Positions 17,406-17,551 of a stretch of DNA of 34,127 nt are shown here, in pieces. Both the position numbers and the translations under genes were made by a program. The stretch covers positions 1 to 34,127 of the forward strand of contig CAXHJY010000339.1 in assembly GCA_964016885.1 (NCBI GenBank), read 5' to 3'. Numbering within the stretch: position 1 is the first letter of the stretch; the number at the start of each line of letters is the position of its first letter. The DNA is from Eledone cirrhosa. Lineage: Eukaryota. The notes below the pieces were generated by a model that was not told the origin of the DNA, did not search any database, and saw nothing but the letters and a program-made list of their open reading frames with translations.

Positions 17406-17551
17406 CATGGAACTCTTTTAACCATCTTTTGATCTTATATATTATTTATACTCCAGTCCTACAAACTGTAGAGTGCTACTTAACCGATATCTGCATTGCT
17501 TTATTGTACTACAATAAAACTCACCTCCTACATTATATATGTATATGTATA

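Follow-up and report, generated by a model that had tools for sequence, protein, structure and literature searches.

Does the 3' tail of a short hammerhead palindrome carry a signal that it shares with an endonuclease-bearing retroelement nearby, and if so, what would that signal do? The question is raised by a 34,127-nt stretch of DNA (the window), in which an earlier note had aligned the sequence that follows an ORF-less palindrome (E1) with the sequence that follows a GIY-YIG element (E2). The match was read as a conserved cis signal for recognition by the reverse transcriptase (RT) and endonuclease (EN), linking non-autonomous palindromes to one Penelope-like element (PLE) lineage. As shown here, what the tails truly have in common is a bulged hairpin, a fold built around a short sequence core and not the long gapped stretch of sequence. 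PLE tails, inverted pseudo-LTRs (pLTRs), hammerheads and the Hydra clade are already known, and within this known class of elements the hairpin is a real cis-acting motif of RNA type that probably has not been described before.

Elements in the window

The window consists of animal DNA rich in microsatellites. Several short palindromes in it are embedded in (TA)n, and E1, E2 and E3 are all inserted in (TA)n. In E1 (17135-17533), an inverted repeat, the plus arm bears a type I hammerhead, and the element has a 3' extension. The hammerhead (17335-17405, plus) has CTGACGA at 17343, GAAA at 17386, a palindromic short stem III and a cleavage triplet ending at 17397. Because CUGANGA, GAAA, NUH and stems I-III were all found in the sequence, and stems I and II also in the fold, it is classed by sequence and fold as a type I ribozyme; no hammerhead appeared among the best 150 Rfam rows. 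The inverted arm (17135-17268, minus) is 5'-truncated and tail-less, and ends in a TA-rich run just ahead of the expected start of the hairpin described below. The 3' tail (17450-17533, plus), counted from the first base of the hairpin up to (TA)n, is 84 nt long.

E3 (16439-16621, minus) is a palindromic PLE stump, one arm of which has a tail (72 nt, counted from the hairpin up to (TA)n) and the other none, and tail-less copies of its family lie at 4888-4965 and 33153-33211. Its hammerhead (16584-16612) has an unusually long stem III and a palindromic loop. No ORF with RWK/DKT motifs was found in the E1 or E3 stumps. E4 (16826-17055, plus) is a tail-less hammerhead palindrome with a stem I related to that of E1; it meets (TA)n 65 nt past GAAA, where the E1 hairpin starts at 64 nt, and the end of its second arm falls inside the hammerhead.

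E2 (24906-26724, minus) has inverted arms of 96% identity, a decayed ORF and a 3' extension. Its decayed C-terminal GIY-YIG endonuclease (25735-26546, minus) is spread over three frames (WYNP, CPL..C, YIG, CRLC, CNH) and is followed by a stop, the 3' UTR and the pLTR, the RT part being gone through 5' truncation. The 3' pLTR (25040-25227, minus) bears a degenerate hammerhead with GAAAC 71 nt upstream of the hairpin, and the 3' tail (24906-25039, minus) spans 124 nt from hairpin start to (TA)n; the inverted pLTR arm (26533-26724, plus) is tail-less and ends in TATA about 10 nt ahead of the hairpin position. Only GAAAC and a short stem III remain of a canonical hammerhead, neither arm having CUGANGA. 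The same degenerate core is present in both arms (25040-25227 and 26533-26724), so the template probably had no canonical ribozyme at the time of insertion.

A protein search of 1.84 billion representatives gave 915 relatives of the E2 endonuclease at E<=0.001. The endonuclease is C-terminal in E2, and the order RT then EN is read from relatives (P0021, P0012 and P0118) that carry RT motifs N-terminal to the same endonuclease. CxxC and CxH motifs around the conserved E and N are present in frame 3 (CRLC...E...N...CNH), as in the alignment of the relatives, and they fit the definition of the Hydra clade in the available text of PMC8557442. The CxCx5C linker is nearly invariant among the relatives, and in E2 a frameshift falls inside it. 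Since its hammerhead core is degenerate, E2 is called a decayed Hydra-type remnant and not a full member. A Naiad identity was rejected, because the EN is terminal instead of an N-terminal EN followed by CxC and RT. In the protein tree, E2 has a branch of 4.0, too long to place; a word-index protein search with the window fragment gave no match, and viral contigs gave no relative.

A bulged hairpin in three tails

Both strings quoted in the earlier note are present at 17445-17486 (plus) and 24979-25034 (minus), each begins immediately beyond an inverted arm (self-BLAST arms 17135-17443 and 25040-25227/26533-26724), and an ACTC/GAGT stem can be folded in both, all as had been claimed. The gapped alignment itself held only in part. 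With the tails alone it is borderline, the local alignment score being matched by 1-59 of 5000 dinucleotide shuffles under five scoring schemes (p 0.0002-0.012); over the whole elements it fails, since shuffles equal the score in 172-200 of 200 cases, and the tail pair is absent from a BLAST of the masked window. In a comparison of E1-family reads and contigs over 17262-17533, position 17483 was T in 99.8% of X1 contig depth, in 100% of X4 and X6 and in about 97% of X15 reads, and 17478 was mostly T in the family consensus. The A of the window at 17483 is thus a private mutation, and the terminal 'taaccg' match is a coincidence. Plain sequence alignment, borderline and partly coincidental, was dropped as the main evidence. 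The string TTTATACTC does recur at 27495 as noted (3 matches in all versus 0.31 expected), but there it lacks the GAG half, and the hairpin descriptor finds no match at that string.

The tail folds of E1, E2 and E3 share one shape, in which a CUC/GAG stem of 4 bp is followed by a second stem and a loop, with a bulge of 2 nt between the stems on the 3' side. The consensus is NCUC-Y-stem-loop-stem-R-(UN bulge)-GAGN, usually followed by ACUYU. In E1 (17450-17474, plus), an ACTC/GAGT outer stem, a TA bulge and a CAGT/ACTG inner stem enclose a 7-nt loop. In E2 (24991-25029, minus), descriptor and fold give ACTC/GAGT, a TG bulge, CAAG/CTTG and an enlarged loop, and in E3 (16488-16511, minus), which the earlier note overlooked, the parts are ACTC/GAGT, a TT bulge and TACT/AGTA. 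The ACTC/GAGT closing variant is common to all three, and CTCCA and the TACAAAC loop are common to E1 and E2.

The descriptor was derived from the protein-fetched loci described below and allows any Watson-Crick closing pair. It matches the 34 kb at exactly 3 places, 17450 (plus), 25029 (minus) and 16511 (minus), a test that is partly blind since the three window copies were known beforehand. All 3 lie inside tails of PLE insertions and on the element's own strand, where shuffled non-microsatellite sequence gives an expectation of 0.33; in shuffled single tails it was matched 5/5000 (E1), 2/5000 (E2) and 0/5000 (E3) times. With a covariance model built without window sequence, E3 was the top match in the window (17.3 bits, E 0.016), E1 came fifth of five (7.7 bits, E 7.7) and E2 was missed; the weak E1 score and the missed E2 mark the window hairpins as divergent copies. 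When folded singly, the E1 hairpin is present in both the MFE and the centroid fold, and the E1 and E2 hairpins are absent from full-tail MFE folds. Folding of single hairpins gave no unusual stability (z -0.7 to -1.5). In many Hydra-type loci the hairpin occurs twice (hairpins 1 and 2, see below). No hairpin 2 was seen for E1, E2 or E3 in the window, and we infer that the E1 hairpin is hairpin 1 of its family. The interior of the E1 hairpin is identical at 16 of 17 nt to hairpin 2 of a metagenomic Hydra-type element, L021 (minus), a level reached by 0 of 20000 simulated sets, although the pLTRs of the two elements are unrelated.

Conservation and covariation among Hydra-type loci

Using the Hydra-type endonuclease protein alone, 98 loci were fetched; genome contigs supplied 20 of them, and the other 78 are metagenomic (from the best 80 of 533 confirmed). 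For the 3'-end test, 35 of the 98 were left out because no hammerhead lay within 600 nt after the ORF, and 20 because fewer than 130 nt followed the hammerhead. R-CTC...GAG-Y starting 45-78 nt past GAAA was found in 26 of the 43 testable 3' ends versus a shuffle mean of 1.24, and in 14 of 832 ORF windows. The motif is thus enriched at PLE 3' ends, contrary to the negative outcome that the earlier note had allowed for. The remaining 17 of 43 ends lack the motif, and 6 of these 17 have (TA)n in that stretch. An antisense control count (25/43) was discarded, the descriptor being self-complementary. Among 47 loci with 5' sequence, 17 have a hairpin pair 55-83 nt apart before the ATG, 14 have one match and 16 have none, and a structure-led scan found a TCTC/GAGA pair instead in 3 of those 16. 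The second hairpin lies about 12-42 nt upstream of the ATG in most loci. The published consensi Hydra-2_Amil, Hydra-2_Ajap and Hydra-1_Ajap contain the hairpin, the last one twice. For the Naiad and Chlamys consensi, a weak exact-word test with five 9-mers gave four matches, none in tail context, and none of 10 loci bearing the hairpin matched an Rfam family at E<=0.5.

Covariation was assessed in 64 non-redundant copies (of 78) picked by GCTC...GAGC(A/T)CT. Their GCTC/GAGC outer stem is invariant because of this selection pattern, and hence it was not counted as evidence. The pair flanking the bulge is Watson-Crick in 59/61 copies (38 CG, 21 UA), the next pair inward in 38 of 56 with 6 more as GU, and the third in 31 of 42 with 3 more as GU; mutual information peaks at the predicted partner positions. 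The first bulge base is U in 62/64. A quick protein tree (99 rows) calls for 5 switches between the CG and UA states of hairpin 1, at least 2 of which are forced by well-supported branches. Compensated outer stems were also found by the structure-led scan, TCTC/GAGA in L011, L012 and L025 and GCAC/GTGC in L081 and L084; the ACTC/GAGT of the window is another compensated change of the outer stem. Over the four inner pairs, G-U outnumbers A-C by 15 to 7, an excess that weakly favours the sense strand and is too small in number to fix it. The bases 5' of the hairpin are A/T-rich. Hairpin-specific constraint within the E1 family is not claimed, as at least 1 variant falls in 17450-17477 and variation is also low in the rest of the tail.

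Two observations on the fetched loci may be added. L021 holds two different Hydra-type elements placed tail to tail on one (TA)n run, and the minus-strand element has an intact 711-aa ORF and both hairpins, which makes it a candidate for biochemistry. The 20 loci from bacterial genome records (L079-L098) are Hydra-type PLEs, several with (TA)n flanks, and are most likely animal host DNA in bacterial assemblies.

Register of the hairpin with (TA)n junctions

Downstream of the hammerhead, 35 distinct (TA)n junctions were found, 16 at 45-84 nt from GAAAC, 17 at 106-132 nt and 2 further away, with none at 85-105 nt. The hairpin is not retained at the 16 near junctions. At 16 of the 17 junctions of the second group, hairpin 1 is kept, and the 17th (L081) has the compensated variant. 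The distance to the junction, which the earlier note had named as a check, proved to be regular: (TA)n starts 2-9 nt ahead of hairpin 1 or 2 in 10 of 11 informative junctions (13 with a matching second copy, minus 2 matching another junction only; three rows belong to the L070 family). The junction (TA)n usually overlaps the TATA of the element by 1-5 nt. The L091 (minus) junction has no hairpin, and in an earlier junction pass, which otherwise gave the same picture, L055 had a single hairpin and an end at +25. At L085:1724-1766, which has no upstream pLTR, the 5' end abuts (TA)n, and the boundary coincides exactly with the first base of hairpin 1.

Reads of the E1 family give a similar register. 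Loose (TA)n ends lie behind 17450, the first base of the hairpin, in 4 of 4 runs (53, 2, 2 and 274 records), these ends being read over 30 letters and coming from at most 4 samples of 3 studies, of which X1 may be the window's own source. In X15, 106 further (TA)n loose ends lie at 17440, TA microhomology blurring the exact base. The E1 family is very high-copy in one organism sampled and present in two others. X1 depth is 0.75-1.07 M over most of the E1 tail versus 1.3-2.4 M in the adjacent pLTR, and since this is roughly half, the tail is carried by a large share of E1-family copies. Other copies extend upstream of 17262-17274 with a variant of 17268-17293, so longer forms exist.

The tail-less arms of E1, E2 and E3 all break off at one relative position, and E4 ends there as well. 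One tailed and one tail-less arm are found in E1, E2, E3 and two small palindromes of L091, and both arms of the long inverted pair in L091 are tail-less. One of the two L091 stump palindromes comes from a family with ORF-bearing members (L070/L088).

Proposed function of the hairpin and its alternatives

The position, covariation, tandem pair and junction register of the hairpin are observed, and from them we infer protein binding and an RT start. In the reading that we favour, and hold to be rather likely, the hairpin, often in tandem between the hammerhead-bearing pLTR and the start codon, binds the RT-endonuclease and sets the RT start, and E1 is a stump of its own family. The RT-EN protein would bind the hairpin on the sense RNA and nick the (TA)n target, the 3' end of which would pair over 1-5 nt with the UAUA that immediately precedes the bound hairpin, and copying would proceed away from the hairpin. 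Initiation at hairpin 1 would produce an end without a tail; initiation at hairpin 2 would produce an end that retains hairpin 1 and the spacer, which would be the 'tail' classically known from PLEs. Asymmetric palindromes such as E1, E2 and E3 may form when copying begins at both hairpins, on the two strands of the target, and the products are joined after 5' truncation. For a tailed product, the template would have to be a tandem or circular RNA in which hairpin 2 follows a pLTR. More tentatively, each half of a protein dimer may bind one hairpin of a single RNA and prime one (TA)n strand, which would explain the tail, the inverted pLTR and the asymmetric stumps together and would make the hairpin a 25-nt loading handle; if true, such a handle would load any RNA onto a telomerase-related RT. 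The cis signal proposed earlier is upheld by enrichment, covariation and (TA)n register, but as a clade-wide structure that is not special to E1 and E2.

That the similarity merely arose by chance in A/T-rich sequence has a negligible probability. The whole-element alignment at chance level, the private mutation behind 'taaccg' and the 27494 string without a hairpin would all fit chance, yet 3/3 window matches fall in tails, and 20-fold enrichment and covariation were obtained in independently fetched loci; for the hairpin, this explanation is already refuted by enrichment, covariation, window matches and junction register. The hairpin could instead act in DNA, as a site of EN recognition or resolution (in a cruciform or in single-stranded cDNA) with ends cut immediately on its 5' side. 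Recognition of plasmid DNA by the D. virilis Penelope EN depended on the tail (summarised in the available part of PMC11167929), the tail has been attributed to EN-mediated resolution (Craig 2021, PMC8557442, available text), the L085 5' junction falls exactly at hairpin 1 and the G-U bias is weak. We nevertheless regard action in DNA as unlikely, because loop lengths from a few to more than 20 nt and the covariation of inner pairs need a single strand, the tail ends of PAc (Poseidon, Anolis) coincide with RT start sites on RNA (PMC11167929, same part), and the TATA microhomology that precedes the hairpin agrees with pairing of a primer.

The junction register alone cannot separate a start from a stop, and an antisense template has been proposed for PLEs (PMC3846280, in the text available), so the hairpin might be an RT stop or template boundary on antisense RNA that marks the end of copying. 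Precise 3' ends with variable 5' truncation fit 3'-end priming, and PAc initiates on sense RNA in vitro (PMC11167929, in part), which leaves this version very unlikely. Somewhat similar odds, still low, apply to a role of the hairpin pair within the 5' UTR, where it would control translation, transcription or export of the RNA, with ends adjoining it through a TA-rich primer site: hairpin 2 does lie about 12-42 nt before the ATG in most loci, its 5' bases are A/T-rich, and an internal promoter of Penelope has been placed in this region (PMC2377424, available text). Against this quite improbable role, the whole pLTR and spacer are A/T-rich, yet the junctions cluster at the two hairpins and none lies at 85-105 nt.

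Relation to known systems

Compared with the Hydra clade in the available text of PMC8557442, E2 and its relatives are alike in the C-terminal GIY-YIG, CxxC, CxH and (TA)n targeting, the relatives also in the CxCx5C linker, and the elements share the pLTR hammerhead, the inverted copy and the tail. The published tails measure 30-40 nt, unlike those of the window (72-124 nt), and the E2 hammerhead is degenerate. No description of the hairpin was found in the text of that paper, and 'hairpin' and 'stem-loop' have 0 matches in its supplement text. The closest parallel in mechanism is PAc (Frangieh et al. 2024, PMC11167929, available part), whose tail is set by two internal RT starts at a stem-loop and whose protein was modelled as a dimer. 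Its AC-rich stem-loop likewise lies downstream of a pLTR, with the tail being the sequence between the two internal starts. However, the PAc starts lie inside a different stem-loop, in the ORF and without target homology, whereas the Hydra-type ends lie 5' of each of two covarying UTR hairpins, with TATA microhomology. Conservation of the PAc stem-loop across families was not found reported in that part of the paper, and the RNA printed there has no CUC...GAG motif.

Non-LTR retrozymes, as described in the available texts of PMC7229834 and bioRxiv 10.64898/2026.07.22.740005, are also ORF-less, with a type I hammerhead and a PLE pLTR-derived sequence. They are head-to-tail tandem units, whereas E1 and E3 are stumps in inverted arrangement that carry a tail; a retrozyme identity for E1 was rejected, since E1 has an inverted repeat and no tandem array of at least 2 hammerhead units. 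Neither of these two texts uses a hairpin or stem-loop term. A description of the hairpin was also found in none of the other texts covered (available text of PMC4209133, PMC3846280, PMC6765202, PMC5737381 and PMC2377424, besides PMC8557442, PMC11167929, PMC7229834 and the bioRxiv article).

PLE RTs are the closest relatives of telomerase, and their template choice, optional tail and inverted arm have one in vitro study behind them. In stringent LINEs and SINEs with 3' stem-loops, and in hepadnavirus epsilon, a bulged or simple stem-loop is bound by the cognate RT and fixes initiation. In LINEs, the stem-loop is upstream of the start and becomes part of the copy. In contrast, the Hydra-type hairpin is duplicated, sits downstream of the start and would be left out of the strand that initiates there. 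A short covarying motif found across diverse families, in register with both types of end, allows direct mutant and rescue tests. It can also serve as a marker for the ends of Hydra-type elements, and for the assignment of ORF-less hammerhead palindromes in TA-rich animal genomes.

Origin of E1 and other repeats in the window

The link between hairpin and PLEs drawn in the earlier note holds for the clade as a whole; it does not establish E1 as a non-autonomous passenger of the E2 lineage, as the pLTR bodies differ, E2 is decayed and stumps occur in L091. For movement of E1 in trans by a protein of the E2 lineage via the common tail, one can point to the ACTC/GAGT shared by E1, E2 and E3, to the CTCCA and TACAAAC loop shared by E1 and E2, and to E1 being very high-copy and without an ORF. 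Yet the motif is clade-wide, the E1 hairpin is nearer to that of an unrelated metagenome element (the 16/17 nt match) than to that of E2, and stump palindromes arise from an ORF-bearing family (L091 versus L070/L088), so that a passenger is unneeded. We consider such movement doubtful; it concerns ancestry and is compatible with the mechanism proposed above. Most likely, E1 belongs to a high-copy Hydra-type family of its own, as a truncated stump, and is no passenger of the E2 family.

Several other repeats were observed in the window. The segment 26851-27200 is a 95% palindrome with a hammerhead-like core (CCGAAGA...GAAA) and two equal ends, without the hairpin, and is possibly from another PLE clade. 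An island between (TA)n runs at 27318-27649 (minus) has a hammerhead-like 3' half (GAAAC-GCGC-GTC) without CUGANGA, and the 27494 string sits in it on the opposite strand. A dispersed repeat of 81-91% identity is present at 22072-22215 and 33641-33973, with an internal duplication near the window end. Finally, 1469-2575 is a tandem array of 56 copies of a 16-bp unit, which grades into higher-order units of 32/96 bp.
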